From: an uncultured Gammaproteobacteria bacterium
GTDB taxonomy: Bacteria; Patescibacteriota; Microgenomatia; PFEM01; CAZTHI01
Direction: 5' to 3'
Length of the DNA: 35,960 nt
Assembly: GCA_964613135.1 (NCBI GenBank)
Contig: CAZTHI010000003.1
Location: 1 to 35,960 of the forward strand
Shown: piece by piece, positions 2,216 through 26,396 of the stretch
How positions within the stretch are numbered: position 1 is the first letter of the stretch
How the letters are laid out: each line of letters opens with the position of its first letter
The notes under the pieces: model-generated
What the model was told of the DNA's origin: nothing
What the model saw: only the letters and a program-made list of their open reading frames with translations
Databases searched by the model: none
Position numbers and translations under genes: made by a program

Positions 2216-2224
2216 CTTGGCCAA

Positions 2225-3150: not shown

Positions 3151-3159
3151 CTTGGTTAA

Positions 3160-3168: not shown

Positions 3169-3295
3169 CACCCTATCTAAAAGTTTCCAGTCGGGTAATT
3201 TGCCCTATTTGGGTTGTAATCTGACCGCCTTTGAAGCAGTTGAAGTGGATTGGGAAGCAATTTAGAATAGAGGACAGGGGTTAGCCCTGCCCAAA

Positions 3296-4189: not shown

Positions 4190-4194
4190 AAATG
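4160..4194 (+). repeat. heptamer-periodic array (gagaatg tcgaatt gagaatg atgaatt aaaaatg), left arm around the four-helix-bundle gene
   Basis: 7-bp periodicity read directly. It is an imperfect reverse complement of 4555..4589. It spans the stop of the upstream ORF and the ATG of the next gene. Confidence 0.7.
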
Positions 4195-4548: not shown

Positions 4549-4554
4549 TTCTTT

Positions 4555-4589
4555 CATTCTCAATTATCAATTCTCAATTCTTAATTTCA
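4555..4589 (+). repeat. heptamer-periodic array (cattctc aattatc aattctc aattctt aatttca), right arm
   Basis: Five 7-bp units, complementary in family to 4160..4194. Ends 4 nt before the next ATG. Confidence 0.7.
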
Positions 4590-4593
4590 TAAT

Positions 4594-5328: not shown

Positions 5329-8300
5329 ATCTGCCTTTTACCTCCCCCAAACCTCTTCCCCCAACATCGCCCAATGCCCAGCTGGCCAAAGGGCTAGTGG
5401 ATATCCAGGACGTCATCGCGCCGCCGGCGATTGAAGTTGATTTCGATTTTTTACGCATCGGCAACAAATATTTCCGCACCCTTTTTGTCGCCGGCTATCC
5501 GCGCTTTGTGTCCGCTAATTGGCTGGCGCCCTTAATTAATTTTGACCACACTCTGGAAATCGCCATGTATATTTATCCTATCGAGGGCCGGGGAGTGTTG
5601 GATGACTTGCGCCGGAAAACCGCAGAGATGGAAGCCGAAATGCAGATTGACTTGGAAAGAGGCCGCATGGTTGATCCGGGCACCAAAGCCAAATTGGAAG
5701 ACGCTCAAAAACTCCAGGAGCAACTGATCAAAGGTGTGGAGCGCTTCTTTCAGTTTGGGTTGTACGTGACTATTCCGGCCGATTCCTTACAAGAGTTAAA
5801 CCAAATTTCCAAACAAGTGGCTGCCACCCTGGGCTCGCTGCTGATTGTTGCCAAACACGCTACCCTGCAAATGGAGGACGGCTTTAAAACCACTATTCCT
5901 ACCTGCACCGACAAATTGATGATCACCCGCAACATGGACACCACCTCCTTGGCCACCACCTTTCCTTTTACCTCTTCGGAATTGACCGCCAACGAAGGCA
6001 TTTTATACGGCATCAACGAGCACAATGATTCTTTAATTGTCTTTGACCGGTTCACTTTGGAAAACGCCAACTCGGTGATTTTCGGAAAAGCGGGCTCGGG
6101 AAAATCGATTTATCGCGATTGTCCCATCCTTTTTGATGATGGTCAAGGGCCAAGAATCGGCAAGATTGGACCGTTGGTTGAGGGTTTGATTGCCAAAAAT
6201 GGAGCGAGCAAAATTGAGGAGGGAATTGAGGGAGTGATTAATCCCGAACTGAAAGTTTTCACTTTTGACCAAAATCTTAAAGGAAAATGGGCCAGTGTCA
6301 CTGTGGCCGCCCGGAAAAGATTTTCTCCTCGAAATCGTCTTTATCAAATTACAACCCAAAGTGGCCGCGAAATCACCGTTACTGCTGACCATAATTTAGT
6401 TGTTCTCCGTCATGGCAAAATTCGGGTAATGCGTAGTGAAGCCGTCAAAACCGGGGAAAGAATTCCTTTATCGAGGGTTTTACCCGCACCAGAAACTTGG
6501 CCCGGCCAGATTAACCCCAAAGATCTTGTTGACCAGTGGCCTGATTTCTTACCCCAACAGATTCCCCTCAATAAGGAAATTCTTTCCCTTCTAGGTCTTA
6601 TTACCAGCGAAGGTTACCTCGGCCCTCAACAGCTTTCAGTCTACAACGAAGTTCCCCTGGTACACAAGGCAATCATCTCGGGGGCAAAAATTCTGGGAGC
6701 AAAAATCAAGCCAATCTTTAAAAATAGAGGTAAAAATATTAAGGGGTTTTATCTTCAGCCAGCCTGGTTTAAAAAATTGTTCATCGCTCTTGGGGCCGGA
6801 GGGAAATCGGGAGAAAAACGGGTGCCGCCGGTTATTTTTTCCCTCTCCAATAAACAGGTTGCTAATTATCTGCGAGCTTATTTTGAAGGGGATGGGGAAA
6901 CTGGTTCCAATGGTGAAGTCGGGGCGACCTCTAAATCCAAAGAGCTTGTTTCTGATTTGACCTATTTGCTTTTGCGGTTCGGCATTGTCGCCCGAATCAG
7001 AAAAAAATGGAAAAGAGCAACTAATACAAATCATCAGGGAGACTACTACTATCAACTGGTTATTTCCGGCCAAGACAACCTCTTGTCCTTTATTAAAAAT
7101 GTTGGCTTCTTAAATGCCCAGAAGAATAGAAGAGTAGAAAAATTTATAAAACGAGCGACCAACACCAACGTTGACACCATTCCTGCTCTTGAGCCGATCC
7201 TCAAAAAACTTTACCGGGCTCTTTTTTCTGCTTCAGAAATCAAGGCCCCGGCTTACTTTTGCGAACTGATGAGAGGCGAGAAAACACCCTCCAGGGAAAT
7301 TCTCAAACAGATTATTAAGGATTGCGAGGGGCGCATCCAGGGGCTTAAAGAAAATCGCCAAAAAATTATCTTTCTCAAGAGCTTGCCTGATCTGAAAGAA
7401 CTTTATCAAAGGACCACTTATCACCGAAAGCTCAACCGTTTAGCCTGGCAAAATTTAGGTCAGTCCTGGAGATTAATGAAAAATCAAGCGGTTTCTCCAG
7501 GATTAGTAAATGTTTTACGGCTCTACCAGACTGTCGACGGCCAAACCATCGCCGTTCCTGAAGTAAAAGAAACGATCTATCAATCCTTTGCCGTCTCTGG
7601 TCTTTCTTTGCGAAAATTTGATGACGGACTTTGGGATGCCGTCACTCAAAACAAAAACGGCGACACTCAATATCAAAAAGTTATTCTGGCTATTCAGTAT
7701 CTTAACCAAAAATATCGTTCAATTCAGCTCTCCCTCCGTCATGCTGAAGAAAAACTTTCTTGGTTAAAGCTTTTAGCCAATTCTGATCTCTTTTGGGACC
7801 CCATTGCCAAAATCGAGAGAATCAAGCATCAAGAAAAATACGTCTATGACCTAATGGTTAACAACGAGGTTTTTCTGGCTGGTTTGGGGGGAATGTTTGT
7901 TCACAATTCCTATCTGGTCAAACTGGAAATCTTGCGGTCTTTAATGTTCGGCACGGAAATTATCGTCATTGACCCAGAGGCGGAATATAAAACTTTATGC
8001 GAGGCCGTTAACGGCGAATACATTACTTTCGGATTCCGCAGTCCTGCCAAAATTAATCCCTTTGACTTATCGGCGATTTACGAAGAAGGGGAAAACGAGC
8101 TGAACTTAAAAATCCTGGGGCTTCATTCACTCTTTAAGGTCATCATGGGCCAGCTGAACCCGACTGAAGAAGCGGTTTTGGACCGGGCCTTGATTTTGAC
8201 TTACAAAATGAAAGGCATTACCCCCGAACCGGCCACGCAAAACCGGGAGCCGCCACTGATGGAGGATTTGTACAAAGCCTTGCGGGGTATGGAAGAACCA

Positions 8301-8909
8301 CAGGCTTCACAACTCGCCGACCGGATTGAGAAATTCGTCAAGGGCAGCTTTATGGGTATTTTTGATCAGCCCTCCAACGTCAATATTAAAAACCCCTTTA
8401 CCGTTTTTTCCATCCGCGATCTGGAAGAAACACTCCGGCCGATTGCCATGTTTATCATTTTGGATTATATTTGGACGAAAATCCGCCGCGAAATGAAAAA
8501 AAGAATTTTGCTCGTGGACGAAGCCTGGTACCTGATGAAATATCCGGACTCGGCCAGCTTTATGTATTCGATTGCCAAACGGGCGCGTAAATATTATTTG
8601 GGCCTCACTACCATCACCCAGGACGTGGAGGATTTTTTGGGCACCGATTACGGCAAAGCGATTGTCAGCAACTCGTCGTTACAAATTTTAATGAAGCAAT
8701 CTTCGGCTTCCATTGATAAAGTGGCGGAAACCTTCTATCTTTCCGAGGGCGAAAAACAGCTGTTGCTTTCCGCAGACGTGGGCGAGGGCTTATTTTTTGC
8801 CGGCCAAAATCATGTCGCTCTCCGCGTGGTCGCTTCGCCCGAAGAGCACCGCCTGGTGACCACTAAACCTTCGGAGATTTTAGCCCAAGCCCAAAACCGG
8901 CCAATCTAA
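5325..8909 (+). CDS. VirB4/PrgJ-like type IV secretion ATPase interrupted by an intein
   Basis: VirB4-like N-domain (FRTLFVAGYPRFV), Walker A GKAGSGK|S split by an insert, Walker B RILLVDEAWYL, and ITQDVEDF. 1194 aa; 593 aa after excision. Confidence 0.85.
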   Translation: MNLPFTSPKPLPPTSPNAQLAKGLVDIQDVIAPPAIEVDFDFLRIGNKYFRTLFVAGYPRFVSANWLAPLINFDHTLEIAMYIYPIEGRGVLDDLRRKTAEMEAEMQIDLERGRMVDPGTKAKLEDAQKLQEQLIKGVERFFQFGLYVTIPADSLQELNQISKQVAATLGSLLIVAKHATLQMEDGFKTTIPTCTDKLMITRNMDTTSLATTFPFTSSELTANEGILYGINEHNDSLIVFDRFTLENANSVIFGKAGSGKSIYRDCPILFDDGQGPRIGKIGPLVEGLIAKNGASKIEEGIEGVINPELKVFTFDQNLKGKWASVTVAARKRFSPRNRLYQITTQSGREITVTADHNLVVLRHGKIRVMRSEAVKTGERIPLSRVLPAPETWPGQINPKDLVDQWPDFLPQQIPLNKEILSLLGLITSEGYLGPQQLSVYNEVPLVHKAIISGAKILGAKIKPIFKNRGKNIKGFYLQPAWFKKLFIALGAGGKSGEKRVPPVIFSLSNKQVANYLRAYFEGDGETGSNGEVGATSKSKELVSDLTYLLLRFGIVARIRKKWKRATNTNHQGDYYYQLVISGQDNLLSFIKNVGFLNAQKNRRVEKFIKRATNTNVDTIPALEPILKKLYRALFSASEIKAPAYFCELMRGEKTPSREILKQIIKDCEGRIQGLKENRQKIIFLKSLPDLKELYQRTTYHRKLNRLAWQNLGQSWRLMKNQAVSPGLVNVLRLYQTVDGQTIAVPEVKETIYQSFAVSGLSLRKFDDGLWDAVTQNKNGDTQYQKVILAIQYLNQKYRSIQLSLRHAEEKLSWLKLLANSDLFWDPIAKIERIKHQEKYVYDLMVNNEVFLAGLGGMFVHNSYLVKLEILRSLMFGTEIIVIDPEAEYKTLCEAVNGEYITFGFRSPAKINPFDLSAIYEEGENELNLKILGLHSLFKVIMGQLNPTEEAVLDRALILTYKMKGITPEPATQNREPPLMEDLYKALRGMEEPQASQLADRIEKFVKGSFMGIFDQPSNVNIKNPFTVFSIRDLEETLRPIAMFIILDYIWTKIRREMKKRILLVDEAWYLMKYPDSASFMYSIAKRARKYYLGLTTITQDVEDFLGTDYGKAIVSNSSLQILMKQSSASIDKVAETFYLSEGEKQLLLSADVGEGLFFAGQNHVALRVVASPEEHRLVTTKPSEILAQAQNRPI
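6105..7907 (+). mobile_element. 601-aa intein with a LAGLIDADG homing endonuclease domain, in the VirB4 P-loop
   Basis: Starts SIYRDCPILFDDG (block A). Has TADH (block B), LLGLITSEGY and YLRAYFEGDG (two LAGLIDADG motifs), and ends FVHN|S. Excision restores GKAGSGKSYLVK. Confidence 0.8.
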
Positions 8910-8910
8910 A

Positions 8911-10206
8911 ATGAATATCAGCTTAACCATTAAGAAAACAATCAAGAGATTTATTGGTAAGGTTGTCTCCAGATTTACCAAGCCCAAAAAACCACTTGCC
9001 CCCGAACCAGAAATCCCTTCTCCCCCTGTAACCATTCCTCAATTCGAAGCTCCGGGAATTCCCCCTACCCCTCAGGCTGTTTCTCAACCGGAACCACCTC
9101 AATTTCAATCCCCGTCACCTCAATCATCACCATCCCTGCTGTCTCCTCAAAACCCAATTATTTCTTTTTTTACTAGGCTAGGGAAAAGGATTATTGGAAG
9201 AGTCGCTGAACCCGGAGCTGAAAAAATCGCCATTGGTAAGCTTATCTCTAGGTTAACAAAGCCAAAAAAAGTAATCGTTCCTCCACTTGAAACCCCGAAA
9301 ATCGCCCCTGCCCCTCAGGCTGTCTCTCAGCCAGAGTCGTCTCGACCCCAACCGTTGCCATCTCAACCACAGCCTGAAAACCCCGTGGTTTCTATGGTTA
9401 CTTCGCTGGGGAAAATGGCGATCAGGAAAACAATTGAAGCCGGAACCAAAAAAATCGCCGTGGGTAAATTCCTCGGCGGGATGGCTGGCCGCGTGGCCAG
9501 CTTTTTACCAAAAGCCGCTGGAACAATGGGGGGTTTTTTATCCGGGCTAACCGCCGTTTCTTTGCCCGCCGCCCTTCCTTTAGTGGCTGTCATTGGAGCT
9601 ATCGTGGTTGTGGTTTTAGTCACGGTTATTACCATCATGGCTGTCGGGGGCGCTTTTCAAAAAGGTCACGGTGGACAAATTTCTAATTTAGGCAATCCGA
9701 TTGTTGCCCGGGCGCCGTCTCCTACCAGCCAGCTTGGGGAAACGGCTATCTGGACACTTAATCAATGTGGGATTGCTGCTGTTAATAAAGGCACCTGGGC
9801 CAGAACCGAAGTTTGTCTCCGCTCCAGTTCCTTACCAAATAAAGAAACAATTATCTCTCAATTTCACTTTTCTGTTTTTGAAGTCGGACCGGGCCTACAA
9901 TGTGTTGGCTTTGTCCGGGGAGTAATGGCCGCCTTAGGAAAAGATCCCGGTGGCGGTCGCGATGCCAAAGGCTACCTAAACCCGCCACCACCGGTCGGCT
10001 ATCAGCCAATAAATACCAATATGCAAAACGTTCAAGTTGGCGATTTAGTTATAATGAGAGGAAGTAACGATGGACATATCGCTATCGTTATCGAAAAAAA
10101 TGCCGATTCAATTAGAGTTGCCCAAGCCTGGGGGACCAACGGCGGCGCGATTCAGATTACTGAGATTAATCCGGTTTATTTTGACGGGTTTTTAAGACCA
10201 CAGTGA
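8911..10206 (+). CDS. membrane-anchored cell-wall hydrolase with a C-terminal CHAP-like domain (PrgK/VirB1 analogue)
   Basis: Pro-rich N-terminal region duplicated internally, a TM segment (LPLVAVIGAIVVVVLVTVITIMAV), then LQCVGFVRG ... GDLVIMRGSNDGHIAIVIEK as the Cys/His pair of CHAP. Confidence 0.6.
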   Translation: MNISLTIKKTIKRFIGKVVSRFTKPKKPLAPEPEIPSPPVTIPQFEAPGIPPTPQAVSQPEPPQFQSPSPQSSPSLLSPQNPIISFFTRLGKRIIGRVAEPGAEKIAIGKLISRLTKPKKVIVPPLETPKIAPAPQAVSQPESSRPQPLPSQPQPENPVVSMVTSLGKMAIRKTIEAGTKKIAVGKFLGGMAGRVASFLPKAAGTMGGFLSGLTAVSLPAALPLVAVIGAIVVVVLVTVITIMAVGGAFQKGHGGQISNLGNPIVARAPSPTSQLGETAIWTLNQCGIAAVNKGTWARTEVCLRSSSLPNKETIISQFHFSVFEVGPGLQCVGFVRGVMAALGKDPGGGRDAKGYLNPPPPVGYQPINTNMQNVQVGDLVIMRGSNDGHIAIVIEKNADSIRVAQAWGTNGGAIQITEINPVYFDGFLRPQ

Positions 10207-10616
10207 GAAGAATAAACGGCTTATTTATTTTGATTTTGATTTTAGCCGCCACGGCGAGCGGGTTAGTTTTTTGGCGCTTATTTTTATACCAGCCGCCGGC
10301 TCCGGCGGAAATTTCTGGCCCAACCCCAACCCCTGTCCAATTTATCTTGCCTTCACCAGCGCCTTTTCAGGAAGGCAAAGGAGAGTCTCCGACAGACCTT
10401 TTTCGTTCTCTTAAAGAACGATTTCCCTTGGCTGCCTTTTTGCCATACCAAACCGAAGCCTTCTCGATTGATTACACCGCTCCTTTATCTTTAAAAGTAG
10501 AAATTAGAGAGGCGAGTCAAGCGGCTCAAATTAAAAAAGACGTTTTGGAATGGATAAGTTCTCACGGAGTCGACCCGGCGACGCACCAAATCAGGTATCT
10601 TATTCCTGCACCCTGA
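10203..10616 (+). CDS. small membrane-anchored protein (positionally PrgL/VirB8-like; function unknown)
   Basis: GTG start overlaps the upstream stop (GTGA). N-terminal TM LFILILILAATASGLVFW. No motif recognised. Confidence 0.45.
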   Translation: MRRINGLFILILILAATASGLVFWRLFLYQPPAPAEISGPTPTPVQFILPSPAPFQEGKGESPTDLFRSLKERFPLAAFLPYQTEAFSIDYTAPLSLKVEIREASQAAQIKKDVLEWISSHGVDPATHQIRYLIPAP

Positions 10617-11727
10617 CCGGCATAATCAAATGCAGGGCCTCTTTTTCTTCGGCATTGGTAAAAACACCCGGCGCCAGCGGTCCGGTCATCTCAAAATTAA
10701 TGAGCTGGGCTTCGTTGGAATTTAAGAAATCCAAAAGATAGCGGGCATTAAAAGCGATACTGCCACCTTCACCTTCGGTCTTGATTTCGACTTCAATCGC
10801 GTTTTCCCCAACTTGCGCCGCATTGGCGCTGACTTGCAACTTTGAGCTTTGAACTTTGAACTTAATAATATTGGCTGATTCACGGGCAAAAATGGCCGCC
10901 GTCCGCACCGCTCCCAGCAAGCTGACTCTATCCAAGGTGATTTTCGTGGTCGCCTTCCCCGGTAAGATTTTTTCGTAATCGGGGAATTTCCCTTCAATCA
11001 AGCGGGTGACAATTTCCGCTTCGGGCGTGGAAAAAATCGCCTGATTGGCTTGCGGCGTAATCGTTAAGCCCAAAGTTTTACCTTCTTCCGCCTCGCCGAT
11101 AATTCTACCAACCTCCGCCAGGGTTCGGGAAGGAATCAGCAAACCGGCCGCCAACTCTTTAATTTCTTTGCCTTTTAAAGTGGTTTTAATTTTTTGAAAG
11201 CTCAAACGATAGCCATCGGTGGCCACCAAAGTCAGATCATCTTCTTCCAAACGGACCAAAACGCCGTTGAGTTGAGGCCGGCCTTCATCTTGGGCCGCCG
11301 CAAAAGCCACTTGACCAATCGCTTTAGAAAAAGCGTGGCTTTCCAAAGAAATTTCCGGCTCGGACGTGATCGTCGGCACACTGGGAAATTCACCGGCCGG
11401 CAAACAGACAAAACTGGCCTGGTAATTGCCGCAGCCTAAAGACAGCAAATTTTCTTTCAGCTCCAAATCGATTTTCCCGGCCGGTAAAGAAGCGACGTAT
11501 TCGTTGAAAATTTTGGCGGGAATGGAAGTCGCGCCTTCTTTTTCAATCTTGGCGCCCACCCAAAAATTAATGCCGGTTTCCAAATTGGTGGCGGAAAGTT
11601 TCAGTCGGCCTTTATCGGTGGCCAGTAAAATATTGGCTAAAATCGGTAATTGAGCTTTAGTGGTCACGGAGCGACTAACAATGGTAAGACCACGAACAAG
11701 GTTTTCTTGGAAAACGGAAAGTTTCAT
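10600..11727 (-). CDS. dnaN: DNA polymerase III beta sliding clamp
   Basis: 375 aa. MKLSVFQENL...LPILANILL...ATDGYRL...ALHLIMPVR are classic DnaN blocks. Lies downstream of dnaA. Confidence 0.95.
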   Translation of the reverse strand: MKLSVFQENLVRGLTIVSRSVTTKAQLPILANILLATDKGRLKLSATNLETGINFWVGAKIEKEGATSIPAKIFNEYVASLPAGKIDLELKENLLSLGCGNYQASFVCLPAGEFPSVPTITSEPEISLESHAFSKAIGQVAFAAAQDEGRPQLNGVLVRLEEDDLTLVATDGYRLSFQKIKTTLKGKEIKELAAGLLIPSRTLAEVGRIIGEAEEGKTLGLTITPQANQAIFSTPEAEIVTRLIEGKFPDYEKILPGKATTKITLDRVSLLGAVRTAAIFARESANIIKFKVQSSKLQVSANAAQVGENAIEVEIKTEGEGGSIAFNARYLLDFLNSNEAQLINFEMTGPLAPGVFTNAEEKEALHLIMPVRVQE

Positions 11728-11913
11728 AGGTTGATTGTATCCTCTCGTCTTTCATTTGTAAAGAGAAAACTAGTAGTTGTAGTAGAGTTGTGGATAAGTG
11801 GACACGGCTTGCCTTTTGATATCGGGTTTCGGGCTTTGTTTTTGTTCACAAGCCGGTTAAAAGTTTCCCAACAATTGTGGATAAGTGCACCAATCTTTGT
11901 GGAATAGCCTAAA
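11728..11913. promoter_or_regulatory. dnaA-dnaN intergenic region with a DnaA-box cluster (candidate oriC element)
   Basis: Perfect TGTGGATAA at 11789..11797 and 11876..11884. Near-matches TTGTTCACA at 11842..11850 and TGTGGAATA at 11897..11905. Confidence 0.5.
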
Positions 11914-13302
11914 TTATGCATAAAGTCGTTTTTTTATCTCCGCGATATCCACCCGCATATCCTCAGAGCTTGGGAGCAGCTTGGTGATTTTATCCACACC
12001 GTGCATGACGGTGGTGTGATCCCGGTCCCCCAACAGCTGGCCGATCTCCATCAACGGCGTGTTAAATTCGGTCCGTAAAAGATACATCAGGATTTGCCGG
12101 GGCACGACAATGATTTTATTTCTCTTGGGTCCGGTAAGATCGCCGACCTTGAGATTAAAATAAAAAGCGACACTCTTCACCATTTCTTTGGGCTTGACTA
12201 ATTTTTTCGGCAAACTGGCTTGGCTGGCTTGGCCCAATAAAGCTTGGACCAGCTCCGGAGAGATAGGAATATTTTTCATTTGAATCTCGCTGCTAAGTCT
12301 GGTTAAGAAACCTTCCATGCGCCGGATGGAGGTGATGTTGCCGGCAATGAGCTGGGCCACATCCATGGGCATTTTAATACCTCGCTGCTGGGCTTTAATC
12401 AGCAAAATGGCCGTTCGTAATTCAAAATCCGGTGGCTGAATATCAATCGTCAGGCCGCCCTCAAACCGGGATCTAAGACGGTCTTCCAATTTGCTGATTT
12501 CTTCCGGCCGGCGGTCGGAGGTTAGCACGATTTGGCCGCCGACGCGCAAGATCGCGTTAAAAGTGTGGAAAAACTCTTCCTGAATCTTTTCTTTACCGGC
12601 GATAAACTGGATATCGTCCACCATTAAAATTTTGGCGGTGCGGTATTTCTGCTTAAAATCATCAGTGGTTTTCTTGCGGATAGCATCCACGATTTCGTTG
12701 GTAAATTCTTCGCCGGTGCAGGAAATAATTTTGGTTCGGGGGTGGCGGCTCAAAACCGCGTTGCCGATTGCTTGCATTAAATGTGTTTTACCAACACCAA
12801 CACCACCGTATAGAAACAAGGGGTTGTAGGCCTTTCCAGGGGACTGCGCGACCGCTTGCGCCGCGGCATGGGCCATTTGGTTGGTGGAGGAAACGGCGAA
12901 GGTCTCAAAATTGAAATCCGGCCGCAGACCGATGCTTGCCACCGCCTCCTTGACCTCCGGTCTTTCCTCTATTCCCTCAAACAAGGGCTGTTCTTTTTGG
13001 CTCGCTTGCCCCACCGTAGCCTTGGCGAAGGGGGGCCTGCTACTTTGTTTGACCGTAAAAACCACGTCGTTTTTCATTCCCGTCGCCTGGTCCAAGGCGG
13101 TTTTAATTAAACCGTAGTAGCGGTTTTCAATGGTGTTGCGGGCAAAAAGATTGGGACAACCGATTTCCGTGATTTGCCGGTTGGCCGCAATCTTTTTAAA
13201 ACCGGTCACAAAAGTTTGGGGAAACCAAGTGGCGAAATTAGCCGAGGACAGGTTCAATTTTAAATTTTCTAAGACAGTTTGCCAAACTTTTTCTTTATCC
13301 AT
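11914..13302 (-). CDS. dnaA: chromosomal replication initiator DnaA
   Basis: GGVGVGKTHL Walker A, MVDDIQF, the LRSRF sensor, and the C-terminal DNA-binding block HTTVMHG. ATG at 13302 preferred over the TTG at 13326. Confidence 0.95.
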   Translation of the reverse strand: MDKEKVWQTVLENLKLNLSSANFATWFPQTFVTGFKKIAANRQITEIGCPNLFARNTIENRYYGLIKTALDQATGMKNDVVFTVKQSSRPPFAKATVGQASQKEQPLFEGIEERPEVKEAVASIGLRPDFNFETFAVSSTNQMAHAAAQAVAQSPGKAYNPLFLYGGVGVGKTHLMQAIGNAVLSRHPRTKIISCTGEEFTNEIVDAIRKKTTDDFKQKYRTAKILMVDDIQFIAGKEKIQEEFFHTFNAILRVGGQIVLTSDRRPEEISKLEDRLRSRFEGGLTIDIQPPDFELRTAILLIKAQQRGIKMPMDVAQLIAGNITSIRRMEGFLTRLSSEIQMKNIPISPELVQALLGQASQASLPKKLVKPKEMVKSVAFYFNLKVGDLTGPKRNKIIVVPRQILMYLLRTEFNTPLMEIGQLLGDRDHTTVMHGVDKITKLLPSSEDMRVDIAEIKKRLYA

Positions 13303-13335
13303 TGAAGGCGGGCGAGGTAAATTCAATCTAACAAC

Positions 13336-13353
13336 TTATCCACAATTTGTCAA
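13336..13353. repeat. 18-bp direct repeat TTATCCACAATTTGTCAA, copy 1 (DnaA box plus dnaA -35)
   Basis: Identical to 15267..15284. Minus strand reads TTGACA-N17-TAGATT upstream of dnaA, with the DnaA box in the spacer. Confidence 0.8.
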
Positions 13354-13375
13354 CTGGTAAAAAATCTTGTCTAAT

Positions 13376-13962
13376 TCAATCATTCGCCGGGTTCTTATTA
13401 ATCTTTCTTACGACAAACAATTCTCTATTTTCCACTGAATCAAAGGGAACGATTGTAATAGAGTATCCGGTTTGTTGGTATACCTCAATAATTCTGTCTC
13501 TAATCCTTTGACATTTCTCGTACGAACCAAACATGGCTGGACGTTCATTGGCGTGTTGACTAAAGGTATTTTCGTCTAATAAATCAAACACAAAAACAGT
13601 GTTGCCATAACGATGGTCTTTAATAATATCAATTAAGTCTGCAGATACGGGAACATCAAGTAATTCATGCAAGACGACCAAATCAGGTAATCCACGATCA
13701 AAAAAGGAAATATCGTATAATCGAGCATCAGAGTAATCAACCATAAAAAGTCTCTGGCTTTGACTAAGGAAATCTCTTAAATCCGAAAAAATTACTTCTA
13801 AGGGTAAACTGTGTAGGGAGACATCTATTCCGCCGCGTCTCCTTAATTGATCTACTTGTTGTTTAATTACTCTTACAACTGGCTCTTCAAATGTTTTAAA
13901 TCTTTTCCCCAGTTCTCGAATTGTAGTCGTTTTACCAGAACGCGGGGCACCGGTAATCCCAT
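13376..13962 (-). pseudogene. small P-loop ATPase (AAA_28/NadR-type predicted ATPase family), frame broken right after its ATG
   Basis: The frame reads ITGAPRSGKTT..FFDRGLPD..RYGNTVFVF..VPFDSVENR, but the only upstream ATG (13962..13960) is out of frame by one nt at a G3 run. An in-frame TAG lies at 13969..13967. Confidence 0.6.
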
Positions 13963-14771
13963 ATTTCTATGAATATTTGCAATTTCTTCTTGTTTGTCCA
14001 TTGAGCAAATTGTGATAAAAGTTGGCCCGGCTGAAGAAATAAAAGTGCAGATCGGACCATGGTGCTGCAAAGAAAGCACTAGGCTTTTATATTGTTCGCT
14101 AATTCCGGGGAACATATTATTGTACCCCTGCATTATTACTTCATCCGAGTCAACCTTTTCTATTGCCCTTCCTACAGTTTTAATATCTCTTGTCTCCATT
14201 GCTTCCCGAATTTCCTGAAATCTTTGAGCAAAAAAAGGTTGCATGTACTGAGCAGAATCCAAGATGTGTTGAAAAACAGCTTCAGCTTCCCTTGCCATTG
14301 CCCCCCCCTAGAGTCTGGTTTAGGGAAGTTAGGGTTGTCTTCGATTTCTTCTCCATAGTTTTGTGCTAAAAATAAAGGAAGAGCCTCTGTTTTTATTGGT
14401 TCACCAGCTAGTTTATTGATAGCTAAAGCGATGGCGGTAGCTAATGCTGCCGAAGAACCAGATCCTGTATGAGAATAAGGAAAATCGTTACTCGCCTCAA
14501 CATGGACACCCCCCCGATAGTTAATGCTTTTTCTAACAATTTCAGCAAAATGTCGAACCAGGCCCGGGCGTCTCACGCTGCTGCCAACAATTAGTTCGTT
14601 TCCTTCAATGGAATCGGCTTCTGCATGAGTCATCAAATCTACCCCCAAAGATATTTCTCCATAGTTAAATTGCCCCGTAGTTTCTCGTTTTACTAGAGCA
14701 ATAGGGTCTTTTATCAAACAATTTAATCTGCCGGGGACGCTTACACAAATATGGCGAAATCTTTTACCCAT
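13873..14771 (-). pseudogene. GHMP-kinase-like gene split by a frameshift at a G8 (C8 on plus strand) homopolymer
   Basis: The N-terminal ORF has PYSHTGSGSSAALATAIALA (GHMP motif II). The C-terminal ORF has SSAGPTFITI (motif III). The frames switch at C8, 14301..14308. Confidence 0.6.
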
Positions 14772-14817
14772 TTCTTTAGCACATCACCTTGATTAGTCTG
14801 TGGTCGCTCCGAGTTGT

Positions 14818-15213
14818 TCATGCCTTTGGGTTTTTGATGTTCTTAATATCGGTTTTTATGGCCTCTAGTATAAATTCTCTTCTCAAATCAAGATGTTCAA
14901 TTTCTTCCCGACTAAACCAACCTAGGCCCATACATTCCTTTTCGTTTAGCTTTAAACTTCCACCAACAGCCCTTCCTTTATATACTTTTACTTCTGTATC
15001 TTTCTCATCAAACCTAAATGTTTTAAGAAGATTATTTGCTTCAACCTCCAAGCCAGTTTCTTCTTCTGCTTCCCGGATCGCACCTTCTTCCGGCGATTCA
15101 CTGCCTCCCACTCTTCCGGCTGAAATAGTCCACCCTATATCGTTAGGCTTATTCTCCTGGACCAATAAGTATTTATCATTATGACTGATTAGAATAGCGG
15201 AGATGGTAATCAT
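14818..15213 (-). CDS. NUDIX hydrolase
   Basis: Nudix box GRVGGSESPEEGAIREAEEETGLEV. TGCTATAAT lies upstream. Confidence 0.85.
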   Translation of the reverse strand: MITISAILISHNDKYLLVQENKPNDIGWTISAGRVGGSESPEEGAIREAEEETGLEVEANNLLKTFRFDEKDTEVKVYKGRAVGGSLKLNEKECMGLGWFSREEIEHLDLRREFILEAIKTDIKNIKNPKA

Positions 15214-15266
15214 AAAAACCTAAGTTAAAGTCAAAACATTATAGCATAAATTAGGGATTTTTCTTT

Positions 15267-15284
15267 TTATCCACAATTTGTCAA
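15267..15284. repeat. 18-bp direct repeat TTATCCACAATTTGTCAA, copy 2 (DnaA box plus rpmH -35)
   Basis: Identical to 13336..13353. Confidence 0.8.
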
Positions 15285-15306
15285 GGAGAGAAAAGTCTGG
15301 TATTAT
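15278..15306 (+). promoter_or_regulatory. rpmH promoter TTGTCA-N17-TATTAT, 6 nt before the ATG (leaderless)
   Basis: Spacing counted directly. There is no SD between the -10 and the ATG at 15313. Confidence 0.5.
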
Positions 15307-15312
15307 TATGAT

Positions 15313-15450
15313 ATGCCGAAAAGAACCTGGCAACCGAAAAAATTAAAAAGAGTCAAAAGGCATGGCTTTTTGCGGCGCATGGACACCGCTAACGGCAGGA
15401 TGGTCATTAAAAGACGCAGGGCCCGCGGCCGCAAGCGACTCACCGTCTAA
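15313..15450 (+). CDS. rpmH: 50S ribosomal protein L34
   Basis: Manual translation gives [45 protein letters not shown] (45 aa). Too short for the ORF track. Confidence 0.95.
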
Positions 15451-15462
15451 AAACTCGAAGCA

Positions 15463-15570
15463 CGAAATTCGAAATTCTAAACAATATCAAAACTCAAATA
15501 TCAAATGTTTAAAATTTTGGATTTTGATGATTGGGATTTGTTTAGGATTTAGAAATTAGAATTTAGAGTT
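15463..15570 (+). repeat. long imperfect hairpin built from two heptamer-periodic arrays (rpmH-rnpA spacer)
   Basis: 5' arm: cgaaatt cgaaatt ctaaaca atatcaa aactcaa atatcaa. 3' arm: ttttgga ttttgat gattggg atttgtt taggatt tagaaat tagaatt tagagtt. Several paired blocks, for example 15472-15480 with 15556-15564. Confidence 0.7.
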
Positions 15571-15580
15571 TATCTTTTTT

Positions 15581-15940
15581 ATGCTTCCCAAACAATATCG
15601 GCTTTCCTTAAAAACTGAGTTGGCCCGGATTAAAAAAGATAACCGAATTTTTCCCGGTAATTTTTTCGGTTTGCTGGTGGCGCCGCAATTGTCGAAAACC
15701 AAAGACAGTTTTCCCCGCATTGCCTTTATTGTTTCCAAAAAAATTCATTTGAAGGCCAACCGCCGCAATCGGGTCCGCCGGCTGATGCGGGAAGCAGCCA
15801 GGGCTTTGCTGCCACAATTCCGGCCGGGGTGGGATTTTGTTTTTTTGGCCAAACGGACCATTTTGGGCAAGACTCTGGCGGAAGTTAAGGCGGAGACAGA
15901 AAGAATTTTAAATGAAAAAATTTACCCTTCGACTAATTAG
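15581..15940 (+). CDS. rnpA: ribonuclease P protein component
   Basis: 119 aa and basic, with [29 protein letters not shown]. Canonical position after rpmH. Confidence 0.9.
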
Positions 15941-16148
15941 ACTTTACCAAAAATCATTCTTGGTTCGTTCCTCAATTCTGAAGGCTCTTTTTCTTTCTGA
16001 TGCTGCCTGTCGTTTCCGGCCCACTTGCTCGGAATATACCTATCAGGCCATCGAAAGGTATGGTATAATGCGAGGAAGTTGGTTGGGATTAAGGCGGATC
16101 TCGAAGTGTCACCCATGGAGTCGAGGGAGGTTTGATCCTTTGAAATAA
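15912..16148 (+). CDS. yidD: membrane protein insertion efficiency factor YidD
   Basis: [19 protein letters not shown]...[11 protein letters not shown] is the YidD signature. Confidence 0.9.
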
Positions 16149-16228
16149 ATCCAAATTACAAAGTTCAAATGGCAAATCATCCGCCAGCCAGCGGATTGGA
16201 CTTTGAACTTGAATTGGCATTTGGATTT
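16147..16228 (+). repeat. long imperfect hairpin from heptamer-periodic arrays (yidD-yidC spacer)
   Basis: 5' arm: aaatcca aattaca aagttca aatggca aatcatc. 16147-16156 pairs perfectly with 16219-16228, and the GC clamp 16079-16084-equivalent atccgc/gcggat closes the loop cagcca. Confidence 0.6.
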
Positions 16229-16258
16229 TGAAATTGAGATTTTAGTATTATTAGTTTT

Positions 16259-17098
16259 ATGACTGAACTCTGGAACGTTTTGCTATACCAACCGTTTGTT
16301 AATCTCCTGATGCTTTTATATCAGCTACTTTTCCATAATTTTGGCCTGGCGATTATCGTTTTGACGGTGGCCCTCCGTACCGTTTTAATTCCCTTGACTC
16401 TCCCCTCCATGAAGTCGGCCGAAAAAATGCGCCAATTGGCGCCGGAATTAGAACGGCTTAAGAAAAAATACGGTTCCGACAAGCAGGCATTTGCTAAAGC
16501 GCAAATGGATTTTTATCGCCAACAGGGTATCAACCCGGCTGCCGGCTGTTTGCCGCAAATTGTCCAACTGGTGATTTTAATTGCTCTCTATCAGGCCTTT
16601 ATCCAGGTGTTAAATCCCAACGCCCAGGAGGTAGTTAGAAAGCTAAACACTTTGCTTTATCAACCGTTAAAATTGGCGGAAGACACGGTCATCAACACCC
16701 AATTTCTCTGGCTGAATTTGGCCAAGCCGGACGTGATTAAAGTGGCCGGTTTGGGCTTTCCTTTGCCGGGGCTATTTTTAATCGCCGCGGCCTTAATTCA
16801 ACTGATCTCTTCCAAAATGATGATGCCGGTGCTAGCGGCCGTCCAAAAAGACGCGGCCCAAACTCCGGAAAAAACCGACGACATGGCGACCAGCATGCAG
16901 ACACAAATGACCTATCTTTTTCCGTTGATGACCATTCTAATCGGCTTTACTTTTCCTTCCGGTTTGGTTTTGTACTGGTTTATCTTTTCTTTGTTTACCG
17001 CCGTTCAGCAATATTTTGTGAGCGGCTGGGGAGGCTTGACACCATGGATAAATAAATTGAAAATTGAAAATGGAAAATTTAAAATTAAAGACCATTGA
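16259..17098 (+). CDS. yidC: membrane protein insertase YidC (short form)
   Basis: 279 aa with GLAIIVLTVALR..PL, GINPAAGCLPQIVQ, and GLVLYWFIFSLFT. The C-terminal tail is encoded by a heptamer array. Confidence 0.9.
   Translation: MTELWNVLLYQPFVNLLMLLYQLLFHNFGLAIIVLTVALRTVLIPLTLPSMKSAEKMRQLAPELERLKKKYGSDKQAFAKAQMDFYRQQGINPAAGCLPQIVQLVILIALYQAFIQVLNPNAQEVVRKLNTLLYQPLKLAEDTVINTQFLWLNLAKPDVIKVAGLGFPLPGLFLIAAALIQLISSKMMMPVLAAVQKDAAQTPEKTDDMATSMQTQMTYLFPLMTILIGFTFPSGLVLYWFIFSLFTAVQQYFVSGWGGLTPWINKLKIENGKFKIKDH
17054..17088 (+). repeat. heptamer array (aaattga aaattga aaatgga aaattta aaattaa) spanning the yidC 3' end and the jag 5' end
   Basis: Five 7-bp units. It encodes the YidC tail KLKIENGKFKIK and the Jag N-terminus MENLKLK in different frames. 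Confidence 0.7.
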
Positions 17099-17534
17099 GG
17101 AAATAACGCAAGATTTACTGAGCCGCTTGGGGGTGGAAGTAAAGATCTCTGTTGAAGAAAGCGAAGGGGTTTTTAATGTCCAGCTGGAAACTAAGGAGCC
17201 GGGGATTTTAATCGGCTATCACGGCGAAACCTTGGCGGCCATTCAGCTGATCGTGGGAATGATGGTTTGGCGGAAATCGGGAGCGTGGACCAAAATCCTG
17301 GTTAATGTTGGCGATTACCGGGAAAGACGCCAGGAATCTTTGGCAAGAATGGCTGTCTCAGTGGCTCAGGAAGCTAAACTCTCCGGCCAACCGCAAACCC
17401 TACCGCCGATGTCTGCTTTTGATCGCCGCCTAATTCACTTGGCTCTGGCGGCGGACCCGGCAGTGGAAACGCTTTCCGAGGGTGAAGGCAAAGACCGGCA
17501 TGTGGTCGTTAAGACTAAACAACCTTCATCGTAG
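17070..17534 (+). CDS. jag: Jag/KhpB-like KH + R3H RNA-binding protein
   Basis: GYHGETLAAIQLIV (KH-like) and FDRRLIHLALA (R3H). ATG at 17070; the ORF track begins at a TTG at 17064. Canonical position after yidC. Confidence 0.8.
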   Translation: MENLKLKTIEEITQDLLSRLGVEVKISVEESEGVFNVQLETKEPGILIGYHGETLAAIQLIVGMMVWRKSGAWTKILVNVGDYRERRQESLARMAVSVAQEAKLSGQPQTLPPMSAFDRRLIHLALAADPAVETLSEGEGKDRHVVVKTKQPSS

Positions 17535-18738
17535 TTTTTTTGGGGCACTTTGTTTGCTACTTCCTGTCCAGCTTGGCGCTCACTTTTGGCCTAATTTTGC
17601 TTATGTCATGGGCCTGCGGATCGATTATCTGGCGCCGACAATTTATTTAACCGATCTTTTGGTCGTAGTAATACTGGGATTATGGGGCTTGGACTGTTGG
17701 CGAATTCGCGAATTACGAATTACGAATTACGAATTACGGAAATATTGGTGGATATTAGCAGTTTTTGTTTTGTTGCTAGCCGGTTCGCTCCTGGCTCAAA
17801 ACCAAAGGGCAGCGCTGTATAAATTTGCCAAAATCGCGGAGTTTTCTTTACTTGGTCTTTATGTGGCCAAGAGCCGCGAGACGCGAGACGTCATACGAAA
17901 GACGCTCTCTATTGCTGTTCTCTACTCTTCTCTGATTGCGCTGGTTCAGTTTTTCAAACAATCTTCCCTGGGTGATCTTTTTTGGTGGTTGGGCGAGCGG
18001 ACTTTTACCGTGGCCACGCCGGGAATTGCCAAAGCAGTGGTCAACGGTGAACTTTTAATGCGGCCCTACGCCACCTTCTCCCACCCCAACGCTCTGGCCG
18101 GCTTTCTGCTGGTGGGTTTAATCTTAACCTTGCCATATTTTCTTCAAAGGCATAAGCTATTCACTATTCCCTATACCCTATTCCCTATTCTGGCCATCGC
18201 CCTCTCTTTCTCCCGCTCGGTTTGGCTGGTGGGCTTGCTCGTGGCATTTTTCTGTCTTTTCCGAAAAAAGAAATTCTTTCTAGTTATTAGTTATTTGTTA
18301 TTAGTTATTAGTTGTTTGTTATTAGTTACTAGTTATTCCGCCGACGAGGCGATTTCTCAGCGACTCCAATTGATTAAAGCGGCAGTTTTAATGATCCAAG
18401 GCAACCTTTTGGCGGGCGTCGGTTTGAATAATTTTTTGGTCCGCTTGCCGGAATTCTGGGGACCGATCGGCACTACCTTCTGGCTCCAACCGGTGCATAA
18501 TATTTATCTTTTGATCGCCGCCGAAACCGGCCTGACCGGCTTGCTGGTTTTTCTCTGGTTTTTGGTTTTAACCTTCAAGAAATTATCAATTCTCCATTCT
18601 CCATTGTCCATTGCGCTTGGTGCCATCCTGTTGCTGGGCCTGGCGGATCATTATTGGCTGACGCTGCAACAAAACCAACTTCTCTTCGCGCTTGTTTTGG
18701 GGCTGAGTTGGGAAGGACAAAGAGGGTTTAAAAGTTAA
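17482..18738 (+). CDS. O-antigen ligase/polymerase-like (Wzy_C) polytopic membrane protein
   Basis: Multiple TM helices, with RPYATFSHPNALAGFL and PVHNIYLLIAAETGLTGLL. Start uncertain (GTG 17482 or ATG 17500). Contains five short-period arrays. Confidence 0.7.
   Translation: MKAKTGMWSLRLNNLHRSFFGALCLLLPVQLGAHFWPNFAYVMGLRIDYLAPTIYLTDLLVVVILGLWGLDCWRIRELRITNYELRKYWWILAVFVLLLAGSLLAQNQRAALYKFAKIAEFSLLGLYVAKSRETRDVIRKTLSIAVLYSSLIALVQFFKQSSLGDLFWWLGERTFTVATPGIAKAVVNGELLMRPYATFSHPNALAGFLLVGLILTLPYFLQRHKLFTIPYTLFPILAIALSFSRSVWLVGLLVAFFCLFRKKKFFLVISYLLLVISCLLLVTSYSADEAISQRLQLIKAAVLMIQGNLLAGVGLNNFLVRLPEFWGPIGTTFWLQPVHNIYLLIAAETGLTGLLVFLWFLVLTFKKLSILHSPLSIALGAILLLGLADHYWLTLQQNQLLFALVLGLSWEGQRGFKS
17701..17738 (+). 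repeat. heptamer tandem repeat, (cgaatta)x4 perfect plus a degenerate unit, inside a CDS
   Basis: cgaattcg cgaatta cgaatta cgaatta cgaatta cgg. Encodes RIRELRITNYELRK. Confidence 0.85.
18157..18191 (+). repeat. heptamer array (ctattca ctattcc ctatacc ctattcc ctattct) inside a CDS
   Basis: Five units. Encodes LFTIPYTLFPIL. Confidence 0.8.
18281..18336 (+). repeat. heptamer array, 8 units (tagttat tagttat ttgttat tagttat tagttgt ttgttat tagttac tagttat), inside a CDS
   Basis: 56 bp. Encodes LVISYLLLVISCLLLVTSY. Confidence 0.85.
18581..18615 (+). repeat. heptamer array (aattatc aattctc cattctc cattgtc cattgcg) inside a CDS
   Basis: Same unit family as 4555..4589. Roughly complementary to 17054..17088. 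Confidence 0.75.
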
Positions 18739-18759
18739 AAAGTTTAAGGGTTTAAAAAG
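18724..18759 (+). repeat. octamer-periodic array (gggtttaa aagttaaa aagtttaa gggtttaa), left flank of the second four-helix-bundle gene
   Basis: 8-bp periodicity. It supplies the last codons and the stop of the ligase-like ORF. Confidence 0.7.
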
Positions 18760-18760
18760 A

Positions 18761-19225
18761 CTAAGAGGGTTTGAGTTTCTGGAGAGTGTCGGGGGCGTAT
18801 TTTCGCATAAATTCTTCCCAGCTTTCTTCTTTTTTGGCCGATTTATATTTTAAACCTTTATACCCTGAAACCTTTAAACTTTGAATTAGGTAGTAAATCA
18901 TGGCCGAAACCCGTTTGGCTAAAACCGAAGCTTGTTGGAAATCCTGGGGGCTAATGAATTTTTGATCCAAGGCAATATAAAGTTGGGTGCGGGCCTCGCC
19001 GCAGGATCCCTTGGCGATAAAAAGAAAATAAATCAGTTCTTCTCTGGTGCCGCGTTCAAACCCCTCGGCGATATTGGAAATCACGGAAACGGCCGCCCGC
19101 TGAATTTGGTCTTTTAAGGAAAAGTCGGAGAAAGTTTTTTGGCGGGTTAGCCCATAAATGAGGTTAACTAATCTTTTCCCCTCCTGCCAGCAAGTTAAGT
19201 CTTTGAATCTTTTAACCGACGTCAT
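18761..19225 (-). CDS. four-helix-bundle protein (23S rRNA intervening-sequence protein family)
   Basis: FKDLTCWQEGKRLV..IY..T..F..DFSLKDQIQRAAVSVISNIAEGFERGT..E.IYFL.IAKGSCGEARTQL is the family signature. Confidence 0.85.
   Translation of the reverse strand: MTSVKRFKDLTCWQEGKRLVNLIYGLTRQKTFSDFSLKDQIQRAAVSVISNIAEGFERGTREELIYFLFIAKGSCGEARTQLYIALDQKFISPQDFQQASVLAKRVSAMIYYLIQSLKVSGYKGLKYKSAKKEESWEEFMRKYAPDTLQKLKPS
18848..18886 (+). repeat. octamer-periodic array, complement of the flanking arrays, inside the 3' part of the four-helix-bundle CDS
   Basis: Reverse complement reads aagtttaa aggtttca gggtataa aggtttaa. Encodes the SLKVSGYKGLKYK tail. Confidence 0.65.
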
Positions 19226-19228
19226 ACT

Positions 19229-19257
19229 TTAAGGTTTAAAAGTTTAACGGTTTAAGG
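19229..19257 (+). repeat. octamer-periodic array (tttaaggt ttaaaagt ttaacggt ttaagg), right flank and leader of the second four-helix-bundle gene
   Basis: Direct repeat of the 18724..18759 family, inverted relative to 18848..18886. Confidence 0.7.
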
Positions 19258-26320: not shown

Positions 26321-26396
26321 AATGGAATTCGATATATCAGTTTACTAACTGCTATAGCGAATGGAATTCGATATATCAGTTTACTAACTGCTATAG
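26321..26396. repeat. perfect 37-bp tandem duplication (AATGGAATTCGATATATCAGTTTACTAACTGCTATAG) separated by CG
   Basis: Copies at 26321..26357 and 26360..26396. The second copy contains the stop codon of the kinase gene. Confidence 0.9.

Follow-up and report, generated by a model that had tools for sequence, protein, structure and literature searches.

Why do rpmH and rnpA, two genes that are usually neighbours, stand 130 nt apart in contig CAZTHI010000003.1 (assembly GCA_964613135.1), and what fills the gap between them? In this study we addressed this question in the whole stretch of 35,960 nt, called the window below, the replication-origin region of a small bacterium from groundwater with a low GC content. 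The rpmH-rnpA spacer is very likely, almost in its entirety, an insertion specific to this lineage: a self-complementary, non-coding hairpin element of a dispersed family, comparable to MITEs (transposable elements of the miniature inverted-repeat type) of the kind of the enterobacterial repetitive intergenic consensus (ERIC) and the Correia elements. Ultra-small groundwater bacteria and phages have the family in common, a usual sort of genomic parasite in an unusual form made of heptamers. Four properties carry this reading: the hairpin is inserted, it belongs to a family, its stem is conserved with compensatory changes, and its copies lie between cistrons, mostly co-directional with them. 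The base of the hairpin lies directly at the rpmH stop codon (15448-15450), and the parts of the locus are as follows:

15313-15450, plus strand: rpmH, encoding ribosomal protein L34, the upstream cistron (list of open reading frames (ORFs); PF00468, E 2.8e-20)
15451-15574, plus strand: the inserted non-coding hairpin element, ~124 nt or ~18 heptamers (absent in relatives; homologous copies; folding; covariation)
15451-15512, plus strand: its 5' arm, A/C-rich (Tandem Repeats Finder rows and pair list; arm hidden Markov model (HMM) at 15452-15506, E 1.5e-11)
15513-15516, plus strand: apical loop AAAT in the minimum free energy (MFE) structure
15517-15571, plus strand: its 3' arm, T/G-rich and without C (Tandem Repeats Finder row 15541-15572; arm HMM at 15516-15572, E 1.6e-11)
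15572-15580, plus strand: short A/U-rich leader without pairing, ATCTTTTTT, from the hairpin base up to the rnpA ATG
15581-15940, plus strand: rnpA, encoding the RNase P protein, the downstream cistron (PF00825)

Insertion and fold at the rpmH-rnpA junction

A protein search with RnpA returned 11 relatives, and the loci of five of them (six contigs, RnpA 52-80% identical) were compared with the window. The spacing from the rpmH stop to the rnpA ATG is 1-4 nt in all six contigs (TTTT, TTTT, AA, A, CC and CT), which bears out the premise of the original prediction that the two genes normally adjoin. Since the most distant pair, L015 and L016 (numbers of this kind denote the loci used for comparison), is also without a spacer, the 124-126 nt were gained in the lineage of the window. 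Judged from this comparison of sequences, the hairpin is best described as a lineage-specific insertion and not as a conserved regulator. Contig PEZJ01000003.1 of GCA_002774075.1 carries the sequence of the window as well, as do nine other assemblies, and the 130-nt spacer is identical in 10 of 10 contigs encoding the identical RnpA; since the 10 assemblies are independent, it did not arise as an artefact of assembly. In four DNA runs from groundwater or aquifers no contig joined rpmH directly to rnpA, and apparent skips of the spacer turned out to be other, shorter copies of the family.

The same operon holds a second insertion of this type:

16149-16245, plus strand: a second cargo-less hairpin of the heptamer type, of a different subfamily (CAAAnnn / nnnTTTG units), in the yidD-yidC spacer

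As RNA it folds at -28.4 kcal/mol (z -2.9; none of 200 shuffles as stable). While yidD and yidC overlap by 4 nt (ATGA) in L011, L012 and L014, a spacer of 110 nt separates them in the window, and by the same kind of comparison this hairpin, too, is an insertion. It also provides yidD with a new stop codon. At the yidC/jag junction (17054-17086) the window has a 28-nt (4 x 7) expansion of AAATTGA heptamers relative to L014, which rewrites the YidC C-terminus (KLKIENGKFKIKDH) and the Jag N-terminus and shifts the Jag start. This expansion looks like growth in place from native sequence.

The rpmH-rnpA element is built in one 7-nt register throughout, with five units of the type AAAnnCG/AAATTCT, three of ATCAAAx, a loop of 4 nt, about four of ATTTTGA and five of TTAGAAT. 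In the 5' arm the units read AAACTCG, AAGCACG, AAATTCG, AAATTCT and AAACAAT, followed by ATCAAAA, CTCAAAT and ATCAAAT; the 3' arm consists of ATTTTGN-type and then TTAGNAT units, and supplies the G in five of the six G:U pairs. Tandem Repeats Finder places period-7 arrays at 15463-15481, 15483-15506 and 15541-15572. The arms have 25% G+C, and the ends AAACTC...GAGTTT pair with each other, the whole element being an imperfect palindrome. As plus-strand RNA it folds at -28.3 kcal/mol, where dinucleotide-shuffled sequences give -18.2 +/- 2.9 (z -3.4; none of the 200 as stable), and as minus-strand RNA at -18.8 kcal/mol (z -2.3), while DNA energy parameters give weak folds of -15.2 (z -2.3) and -11.1 (z -0.8). 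Among 130-nt segments across the 36 kb, the spacer is the strongest GC-corrected outlier for plus-strand folding (-3.0 SD). The MFE hairpin has 42 pairs, among them six G:U, with the U on the 5' side in five; the stem's single-base mismatches comprise A.A, G.A and A.A but no C.A. A segment of 20 bp with two mismatches joins 15465-15484 to 15538-15557, and at the stem base 15451 meets 15571 in an outer helix of 15451-15456 with 15566-15571.

Repeat detection and folding thus agree with the original prediction of a cargo-less hairpin made from opposed heptamer arrays in a 130-nt spacer. Its base counts are exact (5' arm, 15463-15514: 8 C, 3 G; 3' arm, 15517-15570: 14 G, no C), and the plus strand proved markedly more stable, as expected there, once both strands were folded (-28.3 vs -18.8 kcal/mol). 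Two details had to be adjusted. The extent of 15463-15570 contains the hairpin but is slightly too narrow, since the outer helix widens it to 15451-15571, and the block 15472-15480/15556-15564, perfectly complementary as claimed, represents an alternative register, because the MFE structure pairs 15472-15484 with 15538-15550.

With a stable plus-strand hairpin and then a T6 run ahead of the rnpA ATG, the spacer raises the possibility of a dedicated cis-regulatory RNA, whether attenuator, intrinsic terminator or protein-binding leader, that sets the L34:RnpA ratio. The cell needs rpmH in far greater amounts than rnpA, and the excess of G:U pairs on the sense strand would also fit such a device. 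An intrinsic terminator, however, has a G+C-rich stem that runs into its U tract, whereas the stem base here is AU-rich and 3 nt (ATC) lie between stem and T6; a terminator scan found no plus-strand terminator-like site within 15451-15580, and neither a promoter nor a terminator is predicted inside the element. Rfam, searched with the whole window at gathering thresholds, gave 0 matches. The hairpin is furthermore absent from all six relatives, and its homologous copies, described below, stand at unrelated junctions, including phage structural modules, with no T run following the other copies. We therefore regard a dedicated regulator as a very improbable origin of the spacer and retain the inserted element.

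An ORF of 65 aa at 15362-15559, called as a gene in several public assemblies, lies out of frame over rpmH and runs through the hairpin. Compared with 5.8 billion proteins, its peptide matched only identical copies of itself. It is a spurious call caused by the repeat, and the hairpin family cannot be reached via called ORFs.

The hairpin family, its stem and its strand

A BLAST search of the hairpin against the fetched loci gave a match in the yidD-yidC spacer of L015, the relative with 52% RnpA identity. This copy (1081-1216, a spacer of 136 nt) can be aligned over the whole element with 83-85% mean column identity and 76% pairwise identity, while the nucleotide identity between host genes of these two genomes is just 58-66%. 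Both copies share the non-periodic motifs AAGCAC, CTAAACAATAT and ATTTGTTTAGGATTT and differ by one more AAATTCG heptamer unit in the window and by an apical indel. In IMG/VR, a scan with two conserved non-periodic cores produced mostly chance matches, and the true copies came from subsequent BLAST searches with the hairpin, which yielded the full-length copies L270, L352 and L330 as well as partial ones. Arm HMMs (E-values 1e-7 to 1e-13, 3.9 Mb searched) added L236, a full copy with a GC-rich apical insert of 63 nt, L138 and L100, the latter a nearly perfect palindrome of about -64 kcal/mol, together with solo arms in L329, L296 (two), L263 and L161. They took the place of the covariance model R1, which rested on a poor RNAalifold structure and was kept as a sequence probe only. 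A generic (GAATTTN)3 pattern was discarded as a family probe for being too unspecific, and an exact 20-mer from the 5' arm was absent among viral contigs. The family can be recognized from its ends AAAYYC...GRRTTT and the motifs GAAGCAC, CTAAACAA(T)AT and ATTTGTTTAGGATTT, set in a general build of opposed degenerate heptamer arrays, (NAAATYC)n ... (GRATTTN)n. According to PHROGs, the genes next to the IMG/VR copies encode a major head protein, a head decoration protein and a Neck1/tail-completion protein, and these copies sit between co-directional phage structural genes.

Small size, lack of coding capacity and terminal inverted repeats, the usual attributes of MITEs, are all present in this element of 124 nt with paired ends, and so are dispersed copies at unrelated sites (L015, L270, L352, L330, L236, L138 and L100 besides the solo arms). 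The four DNA runs, in which similar arms are enriched hundreds-fold, extend the picture: contig depth over 15442-15585 reaches 80-14000, compared to 0-8 in the adjacent rpmH 3' end and rnpA, and the excess stems from hundreds of contigs with 85-95% likeness and unrelated continuations. Some contig joints are shorter hairpins without the inner arrays.

These copies also bear on a different history, in which the spacer grew in place by heptamer slippage and subsequent inverted duplication without any mobile element. Such growth has a precedent in the yidC/jag expansion described above, seeded by native sequence; in-frame heptamer arrays occur inside the Wzy_C ORF of the window, and the heptamer copy number varies within the family, as seen from the additional AAATTCG relative to L015. 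Nevertheless, TTTT, AA or A is all that the closest relatives have to serve as a seed, and signature motifs as well as a full-length alignment are common to unrelated sites in another bacterium and in phages. Independent local growth would not yield non-periodic motifs shared across unrelated sites, and we consider growth in place very improbable as an account of the whole spacer.

Two comparisons concern the behaviour of individual copies. L352 (5501-5640) and L330 (201-346) are orthologous phage loci with a head decoration gene, the hairpin and a 117-aa gene, in which the hairpins have opposite orientations; this suggests either that the hairpin inverted via its arms or that one junction received separate insertions. 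L016 encodes an RnpA identical to that of L015 and, compared with it (1035-1230), has a deletion of 184 nt next to a short, highly divergent patch. Lost along with the family hairpin are the 3' end of yidD and the start of yidC. We rejected L016 as the empty site of the L015 copy, and as evidence of clean excision, because the coding ends are removed as well; the deletion could reflect hairpin-associated instability, recombination or an assembly artefact.

In an alignment of five full copies, with 77% mean column identity, the RNAalifold hairpin has standard pairs in 89% of cells, and 7 of 40 pairs are changed on both sides. The covariation score of 0.185 compares to 0.130 +/- 0.019 for shuffles, 2 of 500 of which reached it, and as a control the 3' partners were slid by 1-3 columns, upon which pairing fell to 18-58%. 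We take this as support, rather than decisive proof from five related sequences, for a stem conserved with compensatory changes. The conserved structure is found among the five family copies, not at the rpmH-rnpA junction, where the six relative contigs lack the insert. Watson-Crick covariation alone cannot tell a constraint on DNA from one on RNA.

The strand asymmetry offers a further handle. For this copy it is as predicted, with six G:U pairs vs 0-1 C.A (binomial p ~0.02-0.06). In 7 of 8 family copies the strand homologous to the plus strand of the window carries more G:U, in 6 of 8 the same canonical strand is more stable as RNA, and in 10 of the 12 determinable cases it is co-directional with the flanking genes. 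No such preference exists in the stems that flank genes for intervening-sequence proteins (IVPs, the four-helix-bundle family discussed below): 42 of 90 loci are more stable in sense and 47 in antisense, with mean energies of -39.2 and -39.5. Because of this lack of bias, the G:U argument cannot be extended to IVP elements. The claim of selection on RNA, drawn from G:U pairs, is thus weak where it relies on this one copy, given the unbiased IVP stems and the alternative of deamination, and gains from the strand and orientation bias of the family. Together, family strand bias and orientation are modest evidence, not proof, for a constraint at the transcript level.

C-to-T deamination on the non-template strand of a highly transcribed operon would yield the same G:U pattern, and it is the core of the remaining alternative for this fold, a palindrome acting at the DNA level as a cruciform or protein site tied to the nearby origin, with the G:U pairs as a mutational by-product. 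In five of the six pairs the G faces a T of the plus-strand 5' arm, fitting coding-strand C-to-T change, the IVP stems are overall without strand bias, and besides dnaN and dnaA the origin region around the hairpin contains five perfect DnaA boxes, of which one lies 176 nt upstream. However, no DnaA box lies inside the hairpin, copies are found in phage late-gene modules and in other spacers unrelated to origins, the folds obtained with DNA parameters are weak on both strands, and an orientation bias of 10/12 relative to transcription is unexpected for a symmetric DNA site. A function of the palindrome as DNA consequently seems remote.

Several points weigh against an inserted mobile element and should be set beside the above. 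We infer the mobility of the family from its distribution alone. By-eye comparison of the junctions of six copies revealed A/T-rich flanks with no consistent target-site duplication and no conserved target, and no transposase was found within the 36-kb window or linked to the family. The low-complexity heptamer arms inflate similarity measures, and the depth excess in the DNA runs reflects the heptamer class as much as the exact family. The lineage makes heptamer arrays in situ, so part of the length of the element may be local growth. Finally, in 2 of 8 copies the non-canonical strand is favoured in stability, and L100 and L330 are oriented opposite to their flanking genes, so that orientation is not strictly constrained.

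Relation to IVP elements and to known repeats

The window also contains two IVP genes, each within an element of its own:

4156-4586, plus strand: cargo-bearing element IVP1, with the IVP gene at 4192-4548 (PF05635, E 3.4e-23)
18726-19257, minus strand: cargo-bearing element IVP2, with the IVP gene at 18761-19225 (PF05635, E 1.9e-30)

IVP1 is inserted between co-directional genes resembling a type IV secretion system (T4SS) and is bracketed by inverted heptamer arrays at 4156-4194 and 4554-4586, with a duplex of -29.0/-27.2 kcal/mol. IVP2 has three arrays with a period of 8 nt (18726-18757, 18848-18885 and 19234-19257). Its ORF reads through its own downstream array (18848-18885) and gains ~40 residues, array 18726-18757 pairs with the middle array, and the Wzy ORF ends inside 18726-18757; L027 displays the same three-array layout.

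We surveyed 14 IVP1 relatives from reference genomes (Daviesbacteria, metagenome-assembled genomes labelled Gammaproteobacteria, Nostoc, Prochloron, Dapis and Planctomycetes) and 80 from metagenomes, which provided 90 loci with usable flanks. In the 100-nt flanks on both sides, base identity peaks at lag 7 (0.41 vs ~0.28), the upstream flank being A-rich and the downstream flank T-rich. The upstream-downstream duplex energy averages -39, compared to -27.5 for shuffled or cross-locus controls, and complementary units are present in 25 of the 32 loci that have arrays on both sides. About two thirds of the flank units have an AATT core, including the hairpin's own AATTTAG and AAATTCT, and arrays of (AATTCAA)n/(TTGAATT)n are carried by the Nostoc and Prochloron loci. 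Spacings between an array and its complementary partner are most frequent at 350-500 nt, a length that matches an IVP gene. Cargo-less inverted-heptamer hairpins also occur in IVP loci (L219, L213, L027, L026, L221, L204, L156 and L155), several of them between co-directional genes or beside an IVP. A systematic screen for cargo-less hairpins with clean heptamer arrays showed a small excess, 18 vs 13 in the control within 150 nt, and the individual examples are convincing despite it. In L017, L019 and L020, three IVP1 relatives, a tRNA-like sequence (…TAGCTCAATGGTAGAGCG…) follows immediately 3' of the downstream heptamer arm, so these elements lie just upstream of a tRNA gene; a tRNA scan of the window found none.

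The rpmH-rnpA hairpin had originally been likened to an empty version of the stems around the four-helix-bundle genes, and taken literally this would make it an IVP element that lost its ORF by internal deletion. The architectural class is indeed the same, with the period of 7, complementary flanks and shared units; inverted heptamer arrays, which the present analysis establishes as a feature of IVP elements, also form the arms of the hairpin. Two IVP elements reside in the window, cargo-less hairpins stand directly beside IVP genes in L027, L026, L156 and L155, and in L160 the IVP is bracketed by (GAATTTA)n/(TTCTAAA)n arms, with an upstream flank that matches the arm HMM of the hairpin family (E 3e-6). 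Yet no PF05635 protein lies between the arms of the hairpin, its loop contains no IVP ORF or remnant, and all of the at least 8 copies with the GAAGCAC / CTAAACAA / TTGTTTAGG signature are without cargo. L160 is the only one of 92 IVP loci to match the family arms, and the arms of the IVP elements in the window are built from other units, GAGAATT and GTTTAAAA. The empty-element view therefore holds as an analogy, not as a derivation, and descent from an IVP element by loss of its gene is unlikely, while the dispersed hairpin family shares its architectural class with the heptamer stems that bracket IVPs and with the ORF-less intervening sequences (IVSs) of rRNA.

The closest known systems in function and structure are the MITE-like hairpins of the ERIC/Correia type and ORF-less IVSs, of which examples of ~100 nt exist. 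ERIC, also termed intergenic repeat units (IRU, ~127 bp), and the Correia repeat enclosed elements of Neisseria (CREE, ~100-155 bp) are MITE-like intergenic hairpin repeats (reviews PMC2229807, PMC10969869), and CREE RNA hairpins are bound by RNase III, which cleaves or protects them, with altered expression of the adjacent gene (PMC2649163). Like the family described here, they are non-coding imperfect palindromes of ~100-150 nt in many copies between co-directional genes of transcribed regions; they are co-transcribed, as the present element probably is. They differ in that their terminal inverted repeats (TIRs) are unique sequences, where degenerate tandem heptamer arrays stand here, in a TA-type target-site duplication (TSD) and a site for integration host factor (IHF) that are not evident here, and in their hosts, the element here occurring in groundwater bacteria resembling the candidate phyla radiation (CPR) and in phages.

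The IVSs of 23S rRNA are likewise inserted segments whose terminal inverted-repeat stem holds the flanks together, as the stem from 15451 to 15571 would do here, and they are excised by RNase III in Coxiella, Leptospira and Salmonella. In Coxiella the IVS consists of an IVP ORF and a terminal stem of 28 bp that is cut by RNase III, with tandem heptamers beside the IVP start codon that vary in number between strains (PMC4990558). Whereas IVSs reside in helix 25 or 45 of 23S rRNA, or in other rRNA, the element here has protein-coding neighbours in a window without rRNA; it occupies an mRNA spacer, lacks an ORF, and its link to IVPs is architectural only.

Further comparisons are more distant in one or another respect. 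REPINs are non-autonomous extragenic hairpins of ~70-110 nt formed by two inverted short repeats, in many copies per genome (PMC3116915). They share the extragenic hairpin of two inverted repeats, but are rich in GC, restricted to a single genome lineage and linked to a RAYT gene, whose transposase mobilises these REP doublets, while the arms here are AT-rich heptamer arrays with copies shared with phages; no RAYT or IS200-type gene was seen in the 36-kb window. Related small inverted-repeat elements in cellular genomes as well as viral contigs have been surveyed as vMITEs, so that MITEs common to hosts and viruses are an already known phenomenon (PMC11602168), into which the bacterial and viral copies of the hairpin fit; that survey relied on TIR and TSD detection, whereas this family is without a clear TSD. 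The short tandemly repeated repetitive (STRR) sequences of cyanobacteria and the TAACTGA repeats of Beggiatoaceae are intergenic, transcribed tandem heptamers with proposed post-transcriptional roles (PMC4679880). They are mostly direct repeats of one unit, in contrast to opposed arrays within one long hairpin, and the family here is in addition marked as mobile by non-periodic signature motifs. The intercistronic RNase III sites of phage T7 are hairpins in highly expressed operons that are cut and leave stabilising 3' stems. Several family copies similarly lie between phage head genes, but the T7 sites are unique, conserved and not mobile repeats, and there is no sequence similarity. In the literature that could be searched, which is incomplete, neither this hairpin family nor heptamer-flanked IVP genes outside rRNA are described. 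The heptamer-array arms, the occurrence in CPR-like bacteria and phages, and the inverted heptamer arrays flanking IVP genes across many phyla thus appear to be new.

Proposed working, surroundings and meaning

We propose a model in which the hairpin element is co-transcribed with the operon and would fold in the mRNA. Folding would loop out 124 nt, so that at the stem base ~10 nt would remain between the stop codon of rpmH and the start of rnpA. No Shine-Dalgarno-like sequence precedes rnpA, here or in the relatives, where rnpA is on this account evidently dependent on coupling to rpmH. Looping out would preserve the coupling of termination and reinitiation for rnpA without a Shine-Dalgarno sequence, and this would explain why such junctions tolerate insertions only where these are self-complementary. 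The imperfect duplex of ~42 bp would additionally be a plausible RNase III site and/or a 3' barrier against decay. On the pattern of Correia elements, IVSs and the T7 sites, processing or a barrier would allow the rpmH mRNA to outlast that of rnpA and so uncouple their abundances.

A much wider and rather speculative proposal is that heptamer-array hairpins with or without an IVP constitute one widespread class of IVS type. Such a class would colonise highly transcribed RNA (rRNA, operon junctions and phage late mRNAs), be removed at the RNA level by RNase III excision or looping out, and move between ultra-small bacteria and phages. The IVP, a relative of Avd, the accessory protein of diversity-generating retroelements (DGRs), would propagate or maintain the arms, and the rpmH-rnpA hairpin would be a non-autonomous member.

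Within the operon, the plus-strand order is rpmH, rnpA, yidD (15912-16148), yidC (16259-17098) and jag (17064-17534), with dnaN and dnaA on the minus strand. A promoter-like TTGTCA-17-TATTAT with TG extension (15278-15313) ends 7 nt 5' of the rpmH ATG, a position that suggests an rpmH mRNA with no leader or almost none. The five perfect DnaA boxes (TTATCCACA) are located at 11789-15275, around dnaN-dnaA and just 5' of rpmH, and from this placement the window probably contains oriC. Heptamer arrays also occur inside an ORF with a Wzy_C domain (O-antigen ligase-like) at 17709-17738, 18157-18190, 18281-18337 and 18589-18612; their lengths (e.g. 30 and 57 nt) keep the frame and give peptides such as RIRELRITNYELR and LVISYLLLVISCLLLVTSY, and the array at 18581-18616 resembles the 3' arm of the IVP1 element. 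The T4SS-like cluster (3296-10206) encodes a PrgI-family protein, a VirB4/TraG-type ATPase of 1194 aa and a CHAP-domain protein, the ATPase being interrupted by an intein with a LAGLIDADG_3 domain. Two adjacent pairs of nucleotidyltransferase and HEPN/HepT genes, toxin-antitoxin-like modules of the MNT-HEPN type, are located at 1501-3150, and a perfect tandem duplication of 39 nt (26321-26396; 1.9 copies, 100% identity) lies on the 3' side of the intergenic region before an APH-family kinase gene.

In practical terms, low-complexity hairpins of this kind break short-read assemblies, with Logan contigs ending inside the hairpin, and spawn spurious ORF calls. The presence of the family in phage structural modules makes it a possible marker of host-virus links in communities of the candidate phyla radiation, where such links are otherwise hard to establish. 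For the organism, the finding means that a compact essential operon of an ultra-small bacterium can take insertions of 100-140 nt at its junctions if these are self-folding. For the IVP family, inverted heptamer arrays stand on both sides of its genes in Cyanobacteria, Planctomycetes, CPR and other phyla, like the IVS of Coxiella, which suggests, in a form that can be tested, that these long-unexplained proteins spread as units bounded by hairpins, far outside rRNA genes.

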